A stretch of DNA of 64,000 bases from a virus. Each line of letters begins with the position of its first letter. Positions within the stretch are counted from its first letter, which is position 1. Both the position numbers and the translations under genes were made by a program. The stretch lies in IMG/VR virus record IMGVR_UViG_3300042507_005574; one strand, written 5' to 3'. Under the pieces are notes generated by a model. The model was given only the letters and a program-made list of their open reading frames with translations, made no database searches and was not told the DNA's origin. Shown here in pieces: positions 5,598-45,389 of this stretch.

Positions 5598-6185
5598 ATG
5601 CAAAATCCAATCAATCTACACAATTTGCTCGTTTCAAACAGTAAACTTGTTCGTGAGAAGAAAGAACTAATTCGTTTAGTGAGACTTCTGAATACAACTC
5701 TGAATCAGATGTCTGATGTTGCAGGTTCATATAGCAAACAGGTCTCTGATGAAGCGGAAAAATATAAGACTTTGCCCAAAGGATTCTTAGTCAATTTACT
5801 AAAGAATAGAAGTTCTTTTGAACAAGTTATGGCAGCAACGAAAGAAACTGCCAAGACGGTTGAGAAGAGTGTATCTGAGACATCAGGTGACATAGATGAT
5901 AATGTCATGGGAAATGCATATTTCGATTCTCTCATCGAAGAGATGAATAGAATTAAGAGTAATTCCATCAAAAACAATTACATGAATCAGTTGTGGTTTG
6001 AGGGTTATATGGGATCTGATGGGAAGTGGAAGTTCAAGAAAGTCGATAAGAACAATCCAAAATATAATAACAATATCTTTGGTAATAATTTACAAGACTA
6101 CTTGAATGATCAGATCAATAAACTGTTCAATGATATGAACAATGATTCCGATGATTATAATATTCCTCCAGAGGAGAATGTTTGA
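5598..6185 (+). CDS. hypothetical protein
   Basis: 195-aa helical, Asn-rich ORF; possible promoter TTGAAC-16-TAAATT at 5564-5591. Confidence 0.6.
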   Translation: MQNPINLHNLLVSNSKLVREKKELIRLVRLLNTTLNQMSDVAGSYSKQVSDEAEKYKTLPKGFLVNLLKNRSSFEQVMAATKETAKTVEKSVSETSGDIDDNVMGNAYFDSLIEEMNRIKSNSIKNNYMNQLWFEGYMGSDGKWKFKKVDKNNPKYNNNIFGNNLQDYLNDQINKLFNDMNNDSDDYNIPPEENV

Positions 6186-6766
6186 TGGACAGTTGCAGAA
6201 CATATATGTTGAATGAGGCATCTTTAATTCGCCTCTATCAACACACGGTAGAGAGAAATATCGGAATAATTACCGCTTACCGTGGTAGATATCCTACTAG
6301 TGAAAACAAGAGAAGAAATTCTGTTTTGCAGGCTGATATACGGGCAGCAGGATTTGGTTTTTATCGTGTTGAGGGCCATTACATTGAGGGATACGGTTCA
6401 GATGTCTCTAAGGATGTAAAGGAACAATGTTTTCTTGTTATCGGTGACAAGGGTAATGATGATGGAAAATTGAAGGGACTTATGAAGAAGTGGGGGGCGA
6501 AATATAATCAAGACTCAATTTTCTATAAGTCATTCGATGAAAAAGCGGTTCTTATTGGAACTCAATCTAAAGACGAAGATGGGAATCCCGTGGAGTTTCC
6601 CGGTCTTGGAAAGGAAGTTTCAGTAGGCGTTTATAAGCCTATGAAGATGGGTCAATTCTATAGTAGGATGAAGGGTAAGCCTTTCGTATTTGAATCTTAT
6701 GGTATCCCCAAAACTTGGATCGAAATGTATGCAGAATATCTTCAACATAAGGTAGAAGATACTTGA
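6182..6766 (+). CDS. conserved T4-like phage protein
   Basis: GIITAYRG...ENKRRN...GHYIE...YNQDSI pattern seen in large-phage proteins; MLNE-ASL site near the N-terminus. Confidence 0.65.
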   Translation: MMDSCRTYMLNEASLIRLYQHTVERNIGIITAYRGRYPTSENKRRNSVLQADIRAAGFGFYRVEGHYIEGYGSDVSKDVKEQCFLVIGDKGNDDGKLKGLMKKWGAKYNQDSIFYKSFDEKAVLIGTQSKDEDGNPVEFPGLGKEVSVGVYKPMKMGQFYSRMKGKPFVFESYGIPKTWIEMYAEYLQHKVEDT

Positions 6767-6791
6767 CATCAACATCATTTGGCATTATACT
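6763..6791 (+). promoter_or_regulatory. sigma70-type promoter
   Basis: TTGACA-17-TATACT, ATG 6 nt downstream. Confidence 0.8.
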
Positions 6792-7728: not shown

Positions 7729-7756
7729 TTGACACAAGAACAAAAGTAGTTACAAT
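7729..7756 (+). promoter_or_regulatory. sigma70-type promoter
   Basis: TTGACA-16-TACAAT. Confidence 0.7.
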
Positions 7757-7765
7757 TAAACCAAC

Positions 7766-8062
7766 ATGGACAAGATCCCAAACGACATTCAAGAAGTTTT
7801 GTTAGACTATTTGATCTGTAAGATTCAAGAGATCAGCGAGAGAAAGTTTTACTCTCCTTGGATCAAGGGAATTGAGTTTAAGGTTTGGGATGCAATCAAC
7901 GATCAAGAAATTTCAAATCTTGTGAGTGCAGATGAAGCAGCATTTCTTCGAACTGCATCAAGGGCTACAAATTCTTGGATTACTTTGGATAGTGGATTAA
8001 GCGGTCAAGGTGAAATCGTCGTTATTCCCATTTCTGAATGGAAGAAAAAGTGTCTTACTTAA
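7766..8062 (+). CDS. hypothetical protein
   Basis: 98-aa ORF downstream of the promoter, ending directly before the tmRNA. Confidence 0.65.
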   Translation: MDKIPNDIQEVLLDYLICKIQEISERKFYSPWIKGIEFKVWDAINDQEISNLVSADEAAFLRTASRATNSWITLDSGLSGQGEIVVIPISEWKKKCLT

Positions 8063-8455
8063 GGGGGCGAACAGGTATCGACTAGACAAAACATACAAGA
8101 ACAGCATGCAGGAGATGGTTACTAGGCTCCTTTAAAAATGTGACCAAACAACAACTGCCAATAACAAGAGCAGATTCGTTTACGCAAAGCCCGTTGCTCG
8201 TCAGCGTCGCCTTGCTCTCGCCGCCTAAAGATCGGTGAGAAAGAGTTAGATGATCCCGATAATCTAACTCTTAAAATCGGGACTCGCACCAGGGACAAAC
8301 GGCTTCACTCACATGTGCCGTGTGCGTATGAGAAACAGGTGAGAACCTTGTGAGGAACCCTTAGCCTCACTTGGAATTCTAAAGGGGAAGCATGTAGGTA
8401 AAGTGGTTCTTGTAAGGATTGTATTAGCACGGGGGTTCGATTCCCCCCGCCTCCA
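8063..8455 (+). ncRNA. ssrA: tmRNA; tag ORF 8157-8228 encodes ANNKSRFVYAKPVARQRRLALAA*
   Basis: 5' GGGGGCGAACAGGTATCGAC pairs with 3' CGCCTCCA (G3:U pair); T-arm GGGGGTTCGATTCCCCC; internal reading frame ends LALAA-stop. Confidence 0.93.
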
Positions 8456-9130: not shown

Positions 9131-9218
9131 GGATGGGTGGCAGAGTGGTCGAATGCGGTAGTCTTGAAAACTACTTTGGAGCAATACTCCAACGGGGGTT
9201 CGAATCCCTCCCCATCCG
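9131..9218 (+). tRNA. tRNA-Ser(UGA)
   Basis: GTAGT-CT-TGA-AA-ACTAC; long variable arm; G73. Confidence 0.95.
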
Positions 9219-9221
9219 TTT

Positions 9222-9302
9222 GCGTAGTCAGCGTATAGGTTGCCAGGGTCATCTACTTGCAAGGGGTGATCTGATACAGAGGTGCAAGTCCTCCGCTACG
9301 CT
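9222..9302 (+). ncRNA. atypical tRNA-like RNA
   Basis: 7-bp acceptor GCGTAGT/GCTACGC plus U; T-arm GAGG-TGCAAGT-CCTC; elongated central arm; flanked by tRNAs with 3-nt spacers. Confidence 0.7.
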
Positions 9303-9623: not shown

Positions 9624-9651
9624 TTGACATAGTTAGAGTTGCTGTTATAAT
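9624..9651 (+). promoter_or_regulatory. sigma70-type promoter
   Basis: TTGACA-16-TATAAT with extended -10 TG; ATG 6 nt downstream. Confidence 0.85.
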
Positions 9652-40312: not shown

Positions 40313-40383
40313 GTGCCGTGGGAGGTCAGCATCTCAGGTCGGCTTATACCCGAGCAACACAAGGGCAGCACTTGTACGGCATA
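40313..40383 (+). tRNA. atypical tRNA-like element, anticodon UAU (Ile)
   Basis: Acceptor GTGCCGT/ACGGCAT plus A; D-stem GAGG/TCTC; TCGG-CT-TAT-AC-CCGA; T-stem ACAAG/CTTGT with loop GGCAGCA. Confidence 0.7.
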
Positions 40384-40459
40384 TTAAGATAGTTTATATC
40401 TCGCTTCAGGCGAACAGAAACAACAGAATAAATAATTGACTAACCCAAAGGAATAGGGA

Positions 40460-41674
40460 ATGCTGTCATTTACACAATACAATCATGAGATAATCCAAGA
40501 GGAAACTGCTAGAAATAAACACTTGGATCATATCGAAGATTTGATGATCCTTTACGGACAAAAGGGATTAGATGACTCAATAGCATTCCTCAAGGATATA
40601 ATCGAAAGCCTAAAAACCGGAAATACTAGTTTGGGAGTTTCCACCAAATGGGATGGGAAGCCTGCAATCATTTGTGGCGAAAACCCTGATAATGGTAAAT
40701 TCTTCGTATCGACAAAGTCTGTTTTCGGTGCTAAAGAGCAAAAAGCATATCATACGGAGGCTGAACTTAAAAAATCTGGATTGCCTTCTGATTTGATTGA
40801 TAAGATGGCAGTGTGTTTGAAAATGCTTACTAAGGTTGGTATTGGCAAGAGAATTTTGCAAGGCGATTTGATGTTTACTGCCGATATGAAAAAGGCAGTA
40901 AATATCGATGGTAAGCCACATATAGGATTTCAGCCAAACACAATCATGTACGCTGTTCCAAAGAATAGTGATATTGGGTCGGCAATCTCTTCAGCAAAAT
41001 TAGGAATCGCATTTCATACTGAATATAAGGGAGACAGTCTGAAGTCTATTCAGGCAGTATCTTATAATTTCAATTCCAAGGTTTTAAAACAAACAAGTGA
41101 GGTTTGGGTAACAGATCCAAACATCTACGATCTCTCTCCTGCCCTTATGAAGGGCGGCGAATCAGAGATGGCAATCAGGATGCTCAAGGAATGCGAAGCC
41201 CTAGCATCTAAAGTGAGGCCGTTTATCAAGACTCTAATCGCACAGAAAGAGATAGCAGAAACTTATTTACTGCCTTATGTCAATAGTACAATCAATGGCG
41301 GAATGAGCAATTTCAATGCATCCAGTCTCAAACTAAACATCAAAGGTAAGTTTGAAAAGGACATAAATAAACTAAAAACCGACAAAGCCAAGCAAGCAAA
41401 AACTGAATTAATGCAGAAGCAATTAGATTTCGTTGATGCGTATTCAAAGCAGATCGATCAAATGTTTGAACTTCACAATAAAATTGCCAACATCAAAGAA
41501 ATTCTTTTGCGTAAACTGTATGCCATTTCAACCCTAGGTCATTTCTTCATGGATGAGAATGGAATTCGCCCAACAAATCCTGAAGGTATTGTAATCTATC
41601 GATCAGGATCGGTGATTAAACTAGTTAATCGTTTAGAATTTAGTAAACAAAACCGAATGGTGAATCAGAGGTAA
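40460..41674 (+). CDS. DUF6267-like protein with ATP-dependent ligase-type motifs
   Basis: NKHLDHIED, KWDG (motif I-like), QGD, EGIV (motif IV-like), KLV; N-terminus MLSFTQY...IQE. Confidence 0.7.
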   Translation: MLSFTQYNHEIIQEETARNKHLDHIEDLMILYGQKGLDDSIAFLKDIIESLKTGNTSLGVSTKWDGKPAIICGENPDNGKFFVSTKSVFGAKEQKAYHTEAELKKSGLPSDLIDKMAVCLKMLTKVGIGKRILQGDLMFTADMKKAVNIDGKPHIGFQPNTIMYAVPKNSDIGSAISSAKLGIAFHTEYKGDSLKSIQAVSYNFNSKVLKQTSEVWVTDPNIYDLSPALMKGGESEMAIRMLKECEALASKVRPFIKTLIAQKEIAETYLLPYVNSTINGGMSNFNASSLKLNIKGKFEKDINKLKTDKAKQAKTELMQKQLDFVDAYSKQIDQMFELHNKIANIKEILLRKLYAISTLGHFFMDENGIRPTNPEGIVIYRSGSVIKLVNRLEFSKQNRMVNQR

Positions 41675-41675
41675 A

Positions 41676-44600
41676 ATGCTTAACTTCTCAGACCGCAATA
41701 ATCAGATTGATGAAGCGAAAAAAGATAGTGTAGTTTTTGCATTCGGTAGAATGAACCCACCAACTATCGGCCATAAGGTAGTTGTGGATAAAGTTCTAAG
41801 TGAAGCCGCAGCAAAGGGAGCAGATCATTTTATCTTTGTGTCTAAAACTCAGGACACCAAAAAAAATCCACTCAGTCAAAAGTCAAAGATCGATTATCTG
41901 AAGAAGTTGTTTCCGAAGGTTAAGTTTCCTTTTGGTAAATCGACAAATCCATTCGATACTGTTTTGTATCTCTGTGAACTAGGATATAAAAACATCTATG
42001 TGGTCACAGGAAGTGATCATGTTGCAGAATACAACCGTATTAAGGAATACAAAGGTAAAGTAGCGACAAACGATCCAAAAAAGCGGTCGTACTCATTTGA
42101 TAATCTTGAGGTCATAGTTGCAGGCAAGGCAAGAGTTAAAGTTACTCTTGATATGATAGATGATATGCTCAAGAAGGGTCAACAAGTTGATCCTATGTAC
42201 ATGTCTGCATCTCTTATGCGTGAAGCGGCATTTAAGGACCGATTTGATATATTCTCAATCGGCATTCCTGGAAATAAAACTCTTGCACAGAGTTTATGGA
42301 AAGATGTTCGTAAAGGTATGAGTTTGAAAGAGGACTTTGATCTTTTAAATGAGGCAACCAAAAAAGAGGATGTGACAATCATCGCTCTCACATCATCAGA
42401 AAAAGATTTGAGTGATACCATAGAAAAAACTGAAGCGATCTGCAAAAGGCGTAAGATAAAATTCTATCCTGTAAAAACAAGCAAAGCACAGGTAGAAATA
42501 TCAAATGTCGCTTCGAAGAAGATTACTATAAAGAACTACGATGGAGAGGGAAAAGATGTAACCATCGTTCCAGAGAACACAGTTGCAATCGTTCGTGGTG
42601 GTGTGATGAACACCGAAATTGGTGTAGCCATTATGACGATCTTACAGAATAATGGTGTGTTCATGGTAAACGAAAGAGCGGGTATGGAACTGTGTGCCAA
42701 TAAGTTGGAAACGGCTATCGCACTCAAGAAACACGGTTTGCCTCACCCACGCACGGCTTTCGTCGCAAATGAAGAGAATATCGAATCGGCTGTCAAGGAA
42801 GTCGGAGGTAAGTTTCCGATCATCTGTAAGACCCTTACAGGCGCAGAAGGAATCGGTGTGTCCAAAATTGAGAGCATGGAAAGTCTCAAGTCTGTGCTAC
42901 AGACATTATGGAAGTATGGTGCAGAGATCATCATCCAAGAGTTTCTTCCTGAATTCAAGAATGATGTTCGTAGCATAGTACTCAACGGGAAGATATTTGC
43001 ATGTGCCAAAAGAGACAAAGCACCTAAAGACTTCCGAACCAATATTGCCCGTGGCTCTAAGGGCGGATCACATCAATTGTCTGACGAAGAGATTAAACTA
43101 GTTGAGCAAGCCGCACGGGTCAGTAAATGTTTCTATGTTGGTATAGACCATGTTATCAACGATGGTAAGCCATACATCATTGAAATGAACGCAAGTCCAG
43201 GTAGTGGAAATATCTATTATCGTTACTATGAGGATGGCGAAGGTAAAGATAATGTTAAAGGTGAAGAACTTGTAGAAGACTTTGTGGAATACATTCTCAA
43301 CAAGGCACATTGGAAACTATTTTCGAATCTTGCTGTTCGTGAGAATGTTAAGGTCGATGGCAATGAATATACCGCAAAGATCGATACTGGAAATAGCGGT
43401 TACAATATGATTCATGCCGACAACATAAAAGATAATGGTGACCACACCGTTTCATTTAAGTTAGCAGACGGTAAGAAGATTACGAAGAAGATTGTCAGCA
43501 GAATCAAAGTTAAGAGTGGCATCGGGGAGAAAGAAAGAATTGTGGTTTTCATGGACATTGAGTTCCATGGTAAGAGATATCCGAACATCAAATTCAGCCT
43601 TGGTGACAGAAACCATATGTCAACCAAGGTTCTTCTTGGACTGAGATTCCTTGAGAAGACTGGCTATGTTGTTGATCCAGCAAACGCAATATATCCACAA
43701 CCAGATGTCAAGAAAAAAACATCAGGGGAAGAGGAAGAAGAAGAGGAACTATCTGAAAGTATCATTCCTAAAGGCAAAGCAAATATTGCGGGTGCCTTAT
43801 TTAAAGTGATGACCACTAAAGAAATGGTTGGGAAAATATTTGAACTATCCAAACTGTGGAAATCCAACTCAGTTGAGTTCAAGAAAAAACTACAGGATCT
43901 TGAGACAGAAATAGTGATTGACTACAATAAGTCTTTAGAAACGGGAGCAAAAACTGCTTTTTTTGTAGATAGATTCAAGTTACAGAGCATCATTGATAGG
44001 ATTTTGTATAAAATGCTTGATGTCGCTGGTGTAGATTTACAGACATATGTGGCTAAATTGTCTTCAGTATTTGGATCTCAATTAACCATGGGATATTCAA
44101 TCGACGGAGAATCAATACAAGAAGCCGATATTACTAAGGGGAAAAAATTCTACACGAAGAGTGGAAAGATTAAGGCATCCCCAAAAGATAAAAAGACTGG
44201 ATTGCCAAAGAAGTATGTCTCTGGATTATCGAAGCGAGAGGCTGAACTTCGAAAGAAGAGACTTGCAAAGCGTAAGGATATGTCAGATGACGATCCGAAG
44301 ACTTGGGAGTTTGTTAATCCTAGAGAAAAGAATATCAAGACTAAACCTTCGAAATATACGACTGCTTTCAAGAAACTTGCCAAAAAAGGTAAATTGAAGG
44401 TAGAAAACAAAAATGAAATAAGAGAGTCTCTTTCTGCTATTAAGGCATTTGAGAATCTTGATTATATGACGAGAATGAACAGAGCCATAATGCTTGAGCA
44501 AAAGGCGATTCAAAACGGTAAAACAGATTCCGCAAAAATTTACCGATCATTTATAGAATATGAAAAGGACTTAAGATATAGAAATTACAAAGTTGATTTA

Positions 44601-45389
44601 GATATATCTGAAGAAATAGAATCTCTTCTTTATGAGGTGAGTCCTCCATCTGGTCCTGCTCGTCGCTTTTCAAAGAAGGAAAAAATTAAAAAGCAGTTTC
44701 AGAAGAGATACGGTAAAGACTGGAAAAGAGTTTTCTACGCTACAGCATGGAAGATGCACGGAGAGGAAGTAGAGTCCACCCGATGGCTTAATGAATCGAA
44801 GAAGATCAATGCAACCATGCAATGGACTGCTATCGGTAAGAGGGGACCTCTTCTGATCGGCTCTGACGAAATCGTCAAGACCTACAAGAAAGACACCCCT
44901 GGTGAGCGGGAGCGATTGGGTGAAGATAAGCCTTGTTGGGTAGGGTTTAAACAATTGGGAATGAAGACAAAGAATGGAAAAAAAGTTCCTAATTGTGTGC
45001 CTGTGAAGGAAGATACTTCTGAAGAAGAGAAGTCTGCGCTTTACAAAGAGTGGCAGAAATTAGTGAATATGTCCGGCAAAGAAATACAAAGTTTTCTTGA
45101 CTCAGAAGAGGGTAAAGAGGCAGGACTATCACGAAAAGAAGCAGGCAAGGCAGGAGCAGATGGGGGTAAAATTACAAGTGGAAGAGATTCTGCCCGGGCC
45201 ATTATTCGTATGCTTGATACTCCCAAAGAGGACTGGACGGCAAATGATTGGAAATGGGCGAGTAAGCAAGTCAGTTTCATCAGTAGAATGCAAGGTGTGA
45301 AGGGCGGTATGAGGGATGAGAAAGGTCATCCAACCCGAAAACTTCTTGCTCTGAAAGTTTGGGGTCATAATCCGGAGAGGAAATCATGA
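41676..45389 (+). CDS. 1237-aa multi-module protein: HIGH-type nucleotidyltransferase, RimK-like ATP-grasp ligase, RimK-associated retropepsin-like protease, small basic modules, DUF3140-like C-terminus
   Basis: FGRMNPPTIGH; NKLET...IIQEF...FRTNIARG...GID...IEMNASPG; AKIDTG...LLG; WQKLVNM...LKVWGHNP. Confidence 0.85.
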   Translation: MLNFSDRNNQIDEAKKDSVVFAFGRMNPPTIGHKVVVDKVLSEAAAKGADHFIFVSKTQDTKKNPLSQKSKIDYLKKLFPKVKFPFGKSTNPFDTVLYLCELGYKNIYVVTGSDHVAEYNRIKEYKGKVATNDPKKRSYSFDNLEVIVAGKARVKVTLDMIDDMLKKGQQVDPMYMSASLMREAAFKDRFDIFSIGIPGNKTLAQSLWKDVRKGMSLKEDFDLLNEATKKEDVTIIALTSSEKDLSDTIEKTEAICKRRKIKFYPVKTSKAQVEISNVASKKITIKNYDGEGKDVTIVPENTVAIVRGGVMNTEIGVAIMTILQNNGVFMVNERAGMELCANKLETAIALKKHGLPHPRTAFVANEENIESAVKEVGGKFPIICKTLTGAEGIGVSKIESMESLKSVLQTLWKYGAEIIIQEFLPEFKNDVRSIVLNGKIFACAKRDKAPKDFRTNIARGSKGGSHQLSDEEIKLVEQAARVSKCFYVGIDHVINDGKPYIIEMNASPGSGNIYYRYYEDGEGKDNVKGEELVEDFVEYILNKAHWKLFSNLAVRENVKVDGNEYTAKIDTGNSGYNMIHADNIKDNGDHTVSFKLADGKKITKKIVSRIKVKSGIGEKERIVVFMDIEFHGKRYPNIKFSLGDRNHMSTKVLLGLRFLEKTGYVVDPANAIYPQPDVKKKTSGEEEEEEELSESIIPKGKANIAGALFKVMTTKEMVGKIFELSKLWKSNSVEFKKKLQDLETEIVIDYNKSLETGAKTAFFVDRFKLQSIIDRILYKMLDVAGVDLQTYVAKLSSVFGSQLTMGYSIDGESIQEADITKGKKFYTKSGKIKASPKDKKTGLPKKYVSGLSKREAELRKKRLAKRKDMSDDDPKTWEFVNPREKNIKTKPSKYTTAFKKLAKKGKLKVENKNEIRESLSAIKAFENLDYMTRMNRAIMLEQKAIQNGKTDSAKIYRSFIEYEKDLRYRNYKVDLDISEEIESLLYEVSPPSGPARRFSKKEKIKKQFQKRYGKDWKRVFYATAWKMHGEEVESTRWLNESKKINATMQWTAIGKRGPLLIGSDEIVKTYKKDTPGERERLGEDKPCWVGFKQLGMKTKNGKKVPNCVPVKEDTSEEEKSALYKEWQKLVNMSGKEIQSFLDSEEGKEAGLSRKEAGKAGADGGKITSGRDSARAIIRMLDTPKEDWTANDWKWASKQVSFISRMQGVKGGMRDEKGHPTRKLLALKVWGHNPERKS

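Follow-up and report, generated by a model that had tools for sequence, protein, structure and literature searches.

A family of tRNA-like RNAs with a glycine-type acceptor stem and no anticodon loop in the tRNA arrays of uncultured T4-like phages

Introduction

Arrays of tRNA genes in phages have mainly been read as a means of tuning codon usage or as a counter to host enzymes that cut tRNA. Here we describe an element of 81 nucleotides (nt) at positions 9222–9302 (+ strand) of a 64,000-nt stretch of viral DNA (IMG/VR record IMGVR_UViG_3300042507_005574; this whole stretch is called the window), which stands in such an array and has kept the half of a tRNA that enzymes recognize while losing the half that the ribosome reads. 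Its nearest functional analogues are RNAC and RNAD of phage T4, to which it is not homologous. These are stable RNAs whose function is still unknown (PMC9697503). Like the element, they are encoded by small genes that lie in the tRNA cluster of a T4-type phage and share its orientation, and the sequence of RNAC likewise ends in a tRNA-like T arm and acceptor. However, they measure 119–139 nt and have the canonical T loop UUCGAAU, whereas members of the family reported here measure 77–106 nt and have the T loop UGCRAGY and a fixed acceptor. Homology to the T4 genes was considered and rejected, as our covariance model R1 (see below) reached only 4.9 bits (E 1.6) on rnaC and had no hit on rnaD.

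The non-proteogenic glycine tRNAs of staphylococci (NP1–NP3) share with the element the pairs G1-C72 and C2-G71, the discriminator U73 and a T loop with UGC in place of UUC, the last of these having been stated correctly in the initial annotation of this DNA, which was made from the letters alone (PMC7826273). Both also have a weak 49-65 position (A49-U65 there, an A/C mismatch in the element), which would predict poor binding to EF-Tu (PMC7826273). However, the staphylococcal RNAs form a full cloverleaf, have the anticodon UCC and are recognized as tRNAs, whereas the element has neither an anticodon loop nor the linker of positions 8 and 9, its central hairpin extends to 11–14 base pairs (bp), and a search of five large element-bearing contigs for Fem-type transferases found none.

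An acceptor/T-arm module that serves tRNA-processing enzymes is placed on a non-decoding body in the tRNA-like domain of transfer-messenger RNA (tmRNA), in the bacterial Y RNA YrlA and in the tRNA-like structures of plant viruses. The tmRNA differs from the element in its G3.U70 pair, its alanine and its mRNA-like domain, and YrlA in that both ends of the RNA lie on the 'anticodon' side, a permuted topology; no match of the element to the tmRNA, YrlA or plant-virus tRNA-like families was found in Rfam. Allo-tRNAs of the 8/4 or 9/3 type have an acceptor of 8 or 9 bp, a T stem of 4 or 3 bp, a long variable arm and an anticodon (PMC5389517). By comparison, the element has a 7-bp acceptor and 7+5 layers when its A/C mismatch is counted, with no anticodon and, in the window form, no variable arm.

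Results and Discussion

Structure of the element

The RNA at 9222–9302 folds as a four-helix cloverleaf. Its parts are given here with scores from two covariance models (R1, built from nine short forms of the family, and R2, built from 46 hits) and with counts from a model-fitted alignment of 45 distinct rows (alignment A6).

9222–9302, + strand: the whole tRNA-like RNA gene, 81 nt, without an encoded CCA; 90.4 bits with R1 and 84.2 bits with R2
9222–9228, + strand: 5' strand of helix P1, acceptor-like GCGUAGU, pairing with 9295–9301; pairs 1–3 and 6 invariant, pairs 4, 5 and 7 with compensatory changes
9229–9242, + strand: P2, a D-like hairpin CAGC-GUAUAG-GUUG; all 4 pairs covary, and the loop ends in AG, the proposed A18 and G19
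9243–9245, + strand: junction J2/3, CCA in the window and C/A-U-A across the family; A in 45/45 and U in 43/45 (the window has C at the U position)
9246–9272, + strand: P3, a long central hairpin of 9 bp with apex ACUUGCAAG; 7/9 pairs covary, the basal G.U and U-A are fixed and the apex is variable
9273–9278, + strand: junction J3/4, GAUACA, resembling a variable loop, its last A the invariant 'A49'; G in 44/45, the next A in 45/45, the final A in 45/45
9279–9294, + strand: P4, a T-like arm GAGG-UGCAAGU-CCUC followed by an invariant C ('C65', 45/45); loop UGCRAGY in every member, 2/4 stem pairs covary
9295–9302, + strand: 3' strand of P1, GCUACGC, and the discriminator U; across the 45 distinct variants U is the commonest discriminator (40), ahead of G (4) and A (1)

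From its outer end P1 comprises G1-C72, C2-G71, G3-C70, U-A, A-U, G-C and U.G, and P2 begins straight after it, with no 2-nt linker for positions 8 and 9. In the window four of the 9 bp of P3 are G.U, and folding of the single sequence adds 2 further apical pairs around UGCA. The T arm consists of 4 bp and an A/C mismatch, against the usual 5 bp. Like a canonical tRNA, the element has a 7-bp acceptor on a T arm whose 7-nt loop contains C56 and A58; in place of a 5-bp anticodon stem with a conserved 7-nt loop it has P3, of at least 9 bp. It falls outside the canonical tRNAs, the non-proteogenic tRNA-Gly, the allo-tRNAs and the mobile repeats alike.

Every sequence feature listed in the initial annotation is present, among them the place in a tRNA array with a 3-nt spacer (TTT upstream; 2–3 nt downstream), the odd T arm and the missing 8/9 linker. 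It had also foreseen a poor score with tRNA finders, and ARAGORN indeed made no call of the element in the window or in six relatives, while Rfam gave no match to the window form or to a long form, either at gathering scores or at E<=10 (the only low-stringency match was a chance one to NsiR4, E 3.9). Its account of the central arm held in part: there is a long arm, of 9 bp and 2 apical pairs, but it is not an anticodon arm centred on CTTGCAA, since in relatives the tip is replaced by GAUC, CUAG, GUAC, UUUA, GCGAU or GCAA. The apex of P3 is ACUUGCAAG in many members, and UUUGAUCA, AUCUAGAA, GUGUACA, UU, UAGCGAUUA, a GCAA loop and more in others. Because this tip is not conserved, CUUGCAA is not an anticodon loop, nor can the RNA be a tRNA that decodes. 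For the same reason we rejected an alanine (UGC) anticodon within CUUGCAA; R1 on the real tRNA-Ala reached only E 0.28. Pairing of the T loop (UGCAAG) with the P3 tip (CUUGCA) was likewise unsupported, as members whose tip reads GAUC, CUAG or GUAC still have the unchanged T loop.

The central four bases of the tip (window 9255–9263) are mostly palindromic (UGCA, GUAC, UAUA, GAUC, CUAG), the non-palindromic tips being UGUA, UUUA, GCGAU and GCAA. Palindromic tips could reflect kissing-loop dimers or hairpin-templated mutation.

Homologues, covariation and depth

Homologues were collected by sequence pattern. An exact pattern for the 3' 23 nt, run over IMG/VR, gave 14 viral contigs; further IMG/VR patterns, some with the acceptor left free and one fixing only the acceptor and the T loop, added more viral contigs, and a metagenome scan with the acceptor left free gave 23 more contigs. 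In all, 47 distinct variants of 77–106 nt were found in uncultured phage and metagenome contigs, together with L169 and L170, which were retrieved by a pattern with the acceptor unfixed. With R2, family members scored 37–97 bits, against at most 28 bits for genuine tRNAs of the same loci. One pattern match (L168) had only the motif GGGUGCAAGCCCC in common with the family and was set aside as unrelated.

A blastn search with two members against 50,697 GenBank phage records returned nothing relevant. When 185,579 prokaryote species genomes were scanned twice for exact patterns, a single true member came up, besides the tRNA-Tyr genes discussed below. The contig that holds this member also has 17 tRNAs and a permuted tmRNA; it had been binned with a river metagenome-assembled genome (MAG) of Bacteroidota and is evidently a phage contig. 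The element is thus one of a family of RNAs not described before. The family has a clear covariance model, is absent from Rfam and from the GenBank phage records searched, and is found in the tRNA/tmRNA arrays of an uncultured clade of T4-like phages; in kind it stands with tRNA mimics and with the small RNAs of tRNA clusters.

The proposed fold is supported by comparison. In alignment A6, 99.1% of cells form standard pairs, versus 84% when partners are shuffled and 36–49% when partners are slid by 1–3 columns. Compensatory double changes occur in 16/24 pairs and all four helices are supported (P1, 3/7 pairs; P2, 4/4; P3, 7/9; P4, 2/4). As a check on this model-fitted alignment, 16 diverse members were aligned independently with MAFFT; RNAalifold found the same four helices there, with compensatory changes in 15/23 pairs. 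Covariation across related phages was the check that had been proposed with the initial annotation, and it came out in favour of a real tRNA-like RNA rather than a decayed tRNA, given 47 variants besides L169 and L170 and compensatory changes in every helix. The many conserved G.U pairs further indicate that the RNA strand is the + strand and that selection acts at the RNA level.

Around these changing pairs is a core that hardly varies. The acceptor pairs G1-C72, C2-G71, G3-C70 and G6-C67 are invariant, while U4-A69 and A5-U68 are altered only in L169 and L170 (to C-G and G-C). The junctions are invariant or nearly so, with U-A-G leading into P3 and U-G-A out of it, and the A before and the C after the 4-bp T stem, which form the A49/C65 mismatch, are each present in 45/45 rows. 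Variation in length falls elsewhere: relatives have an inner hairpin of 17–20 nt inserted in P2, and the joiner between P3 and P4 ranges from 4 to 14 nt. Most of the closest relatives of the window carry 8 extra nt (AGCAACAG) in this joiner; the window form does without them and is still within the family range.

This core has been kept over considerable distances. The window phage encodes T4-type replication genes (DNA polymerase, clamp, clamp loader, UvsX-like RecA and DnaB-like helicase), and the closest cyanomyovirus DNA polymerases are no more than 47% identical to its own. Over the full length, the polymerases of three other element-bearing contigs are 53% (G002), 50% (G004) and 40% (G006) identical to that of the window; a fourth (G003) has only a C-terminal polymerase fragment at the contig end, 53% identical, and in the fifth (G005, 36% complete) no polymerase was found. 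None of these five large contigs has psbA. The elements of these phages are 62–85% identical, with the core invariant. Genuine tRNAs in the same loci show 6–16 different acceptor strands per isoacceptor, while the acceptor of the element is essentially fixed. The element is under strong purifying selection across phages as distant as different genera. It is also single-copy, with one hit in each of the five large contigs (two of them 98–100% complete) and likewise in the window. The only multi-copy case is a tandem of diverged copies 6 nt apart, at 7894–7974 and 7981–8068 of L110 (also in L114).

Relation to a group of tRNA-Tyr genes

The nearest relatives of the element in sequence are tRNA-Tyr(GUA) genes of the same phage group that have G at position 55. 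In L145, L148 and L160 genuine genes of this kind, with the T loop UGCAAGU and the D loop AAG(C/U)AGCAA, adjoin the element, and two more were found on MAG contigs.

L145, 4401–4483, − strand: G55-type tRNA-Tyr(GUA) gene
L148, 8680–8762, + strand: G55-type tRNA-Tyr(GUA) gene
L160, 3130–3212, + strand: G55-type tRNA-Tyr(GUA) gene
L171, 3396–3480, + strand: G55-type tRNA-Tyr(GUA) gene on a MAG contig
L174, 459–540, + strand: G55-type tRNA-Tyr(GUA) gene on a MAG contig

All other tRNA-Tyr variants of these loci have a T loop of the UUCGAAU type and a D loop of the AAGCGGUCAAC type. The likeness of the G55-type genes to the element covers the T loop UGCAAGU, the AGCAGC-type D loop with A in place of G18 and, in L171 and L174, where these two loops are joined with GCGUAG/CUACGC, the acceptor as well. 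The AGCAGC motif is common to G55-type tRNA-Tyr and long-form elements, and the short forms retain AG at the end of the P2 loop. The G55-type genes differ from the element in that they encode true class II tRNAs; they have A73, a long variable arm and the anticodon GUA, and ARAGORN calls them. R2 gave only 25–31 bits on the two MAG genes. The tertiary 18-55 contact looks to have covaried, with A18/G55 in place of G18/Psi55, and the element probably derives from a tRNA of the G55 type whose elbow it has kept. A tRNA-Tyr that combines a G55 T loop with a compensating change in the D loop is itself of interest for the architecture of the tRNA elbow.

These genes also show that the UGC T loop, which the initial annotation had pointed out, is not peculiar to the element.

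Proposed function and alternatives

We propose that the element encodes a tRNA-derived RNA without decoding ability. It would mature in the manner of a tRNA and work through its acceptor arm and elbow, mimicking an acceptor arm of glycine type; we put the probability of this at about 0.6. Transcribed together with the neighbouring tRNAs, the RNA would, by established tRNA biology, be cleaved by RNase P at G1, trimmed at its 3' end and then given CCA. No member encodes CCA, and as a CCA-adding enzyme was found in only 1/5 large contigs, the host enzyme would normally add it. The RNA would fold to an L shape, with the elbow contacts A18/G55 and G19-C56 as in the G55-type tRNA-Tyr. Lacking an anticodon, and with a lower arm 6–8 bp too long, it could not be used by the ribosome as an adaptor. 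Its top half (acceptor stem, T arm and elbow) may thus mimic a glycine-type acceptor arm and engage a conserved factor that reads such an arm, candidates being glycyl-tRNA synthetase (GlyRS) and other enzymes or toxins whose target is the acceptor end, by charging or by competition for binding.

The glycine type of the acceptor, which the initial annotation had named, is well founded. G1-C72, C2-G71 and G3-C70 are invariant and U73 is present in 40/45 variants, in agreement with bacterial tRNA-Gly (PMC7826273, PMC6097841). GCG with U73 is also the signature of the tRNA-Gly encoded by the same phages. These three pairs and U73 are described as glycine identity elements (PMC7826273), and in bacteria U73 is nearly restricted to tRNA-Gly, tRNA-Cys and some tRNA-Thr (PMC6097841).

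Several observations weigh against this proposal or limit it. Folded singly, the sequence is not significantly more stable than its shuffled versions (z = −0.94), and by itself it would be compatible with a decayed tRNA; the evidence beyond chance is the homologues and their covariation, not thermodynamics. Some homologues were gathered with patterns that fixed P1 and the T loop; for this reason the invariance of P1 rests on the searches with P1 free, and that of the T loop on one search with the T loop free. Four variants have G and one has A in place of U73, which would be unexpected for a strict GlyRS substrate, and the glycine identity elements C35 and C36 are missing along with the anticodon loop. 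Acceptor pairs 4–6 are conserved beyond the needs of glycine identity, which points to a further constraint on the stem. Clustering of open reading frames (ORFs) and Pfam scans of neighbouring genes yielded no partner protein. The matches were to an S-adenosylmethionine (S-AdoMet) lyase-like protein, a DksA/TraR zinc finger, a SpoU methylase, a late-transcription coactivator and gp32, and look like ordinary synteny; the SpoU methylase and the CCA-adding enzyme occur in only some relatives, SpoU being absent from the window and from most large contigs.

A more specific and more tentative version, which we rate at somewhat short of even odds, is that the T4-like clade keeps a ribosome-excluded, glycine-type tRNA mimic either as a non-ribosomal amino-acid donor or as bait for a host factor that attacks or senses the acceptor end, the two being given roughly equal weight. 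As a donor, the RNA would be charged after CCA addition, most likely with glycine by host GlyRS, and would pass its amino acid to a non-ribosomal acceptor, while the weak A49/C65 top of the T stem and the missing anticodon would keep it off EF-Tu and the ribosome. The published glycine determinants (PMC7826273, PMC6097841) are matched by the first three acceptor pairs, which are invariant, and by U73, the prevailing discriminator, and UGC for UUC in the T loop together with the weak 49-65 position recalls the staphylococcal tRNA-Gly (PMC7826273). However, C35 and C36 are missing, the discriminator is G or A in 5/45 variants, and the UGC T loop, occurring as it does in ordinary phage tRNA-Tyr, is no mark of non-ribosomal use. 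Nor did the five large element-bearing contigs contain any of four aminoacyl-tRNA transferase families (FemAB, PF02388; Acetyltransf_6, PF13480; Leu/Phe-transferase; LPG-synthase), although a host enzyme may be the Fem-type user. Taken by itself the donor role is rather unlikely. We hold about the same doubt over a decoy or sponge, an uncharged or CCA-tailed mimic that would protect translation during infection by competing for a host factor that attacks or senses the top half of tRNA, such as toxins that cleave the acceptor stem or modify CCA, other tRNA-directed defence effectors or a tRNA-binding regulator. Phage tRNAs that counter tRNA-targeting defence systems are known, the phages concerned invest heavily in tRNAs and a tmRNA of their own, and the element retains precisely the acceptor stem, elbow and T arm while the decoding parts are gone. 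A decoy specific to defence should nevertheless be patchy and evolve fast, yet the acceptor stem is nearly invariant among phages with polymerases only 40–53% identical, which fits a conserved housekeeping or phage partner better than the target of an arms race, and we know of no cognate host system.

The remaining explanations give the mature RNA no role of its own. An extra site for RNase P or 3' processing, or a folding insulator, within a tRNA-tmRNA-mRNA transcript would suit an element that sits among very short spacers in a unit of small ORFs, tmRNA and tRNAs, and the excised RNA would then be without function. But adjoining tRNAs already supply processing sites 1–5 nt away, and RNase P needs shape rather than sequence, which leaves the invariant acceptor, T loop, A49/C65 and junction bases unexplained, so that we consider a spacer improbable. 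That tRNA finders miss the element, that its single-sequence fold energy is insignificant and that P1 resembles a terminal inverted repeat might suggest a tRNA pseudogene in decay, or else a small mobile repeat bounded by 7-bp terminal inverted repeats. Against this stand conservation with compensatory changes between phages that are far apart, the presence of only one copy per genome, G.U pairs that indicate selection at the RNA level, and a distribution that includes none of the 50,697 GenBank phage records and, in the prokaryote scans, only a phage-like MAG contig. Covariation, depth and single copy together exclude a pseudogene and a dispersed repeat, to which we would give only a very slight chance.

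If the element does act as a donor or as bait, it would be the first case in a virus of a 'top-half' tRNA that lacks an anticodon yet serves a dedicated function, and it would offer an approach to the 50-year-old question of what RNAs of the T4 RNAC/RNAD type do. The family is in any case a concrete object for asking whether viruses use aminoacyl-tRNA-like molecules outside the ribosome, whether tRNA mimicry serves them against host defence, and what role the unexplained T4 RNAs have.

Genomic context

The + strand of the window carries 14 tRNA genes and one tmRNA gene (ARAGORN, Rfam). The element fills the gap between two co-oriented tRNA-Ser genes, with TTT at 9219–9221 upstream and TT(T) downstream (2–3 nt).

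7729–7756, + strand: sigma-70-like promoter TTGACA-16-TACAAT, the nearest upstream and the putative start of the unit (consensus scan only)
9131–9218, + strand: tRNA-Ser(UGA), upstream neighbour, 3 nt away (ARAGORN, Rfam)
9305/9306–9396, + strand: tRNA-Ser(ACU), downstream neighbour, 2–3 nt away (ARAGORN, Rfam)

The next promoter-like site in the consensus scan, at 9624–9651, lies past the tRNA array, and these two sites suggest a single transcript that would contain small ORFs, the tmRNA, the tRNAs and the element. Near-perfect sigma-70 consensus promoters, with 11–12/12 matches, flank the tRNA/tmRNA blocks at 6763–6791, 7729–7756 and 9624–9651. In most loci the element is co-oriented with tRNA genes and 1–5 nt from them, and the identity of the neighbours varies by locus. 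The main flanking pairs are Ser(UGA)/Ser(ACU), Gly(UCC)/Asn, Gly/Tyr, Tyr/Ser(ACU), Gly/Val and a terminator-like hairpin/Glu.

The downstream tRNA-Ser is of class II with the anticodon ACU (A34); many relatives also have this gene next to the element, and 7 distinct sequences of it occur. In L005, L010, L017, L019, L082, L169 and others, a conserved GC-rich hairpin with a T run (GGCGGCUCCAUUCAAAAGCCGCCGCUUUUUU) lies directly 5' of the element and stops 0–2 nt before G1; it is terminator-like, yet the tRNA array comes after it. The tmRNA of the window (8063–8455) scored 95.9 bits in Rfam and has the tag ANNKSRFVYAKPVARQRRLALAA. Circularly permuted tmRNA genes occur in the relatives L005 and L175, and in L016, L131 and L149 a permuted tmRNA-like T arm appears directly after the element, with no ARAGORN call there.

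Upstream of the tRNA block, at 6182–6766, is the S-adenosylmethionine lyase-like gene (PF23780), which is conserved close to the array in 19 loci. Elsewhere in the window, a tRNA-like stretch at 40313–40385 was called neither by ARAGORN nor by R1 or R2, and 40460–45389 encodes a DUF6267 protein followed by a protein of 1237 aa with RimK ATP-grasp and Zn-protease domains.

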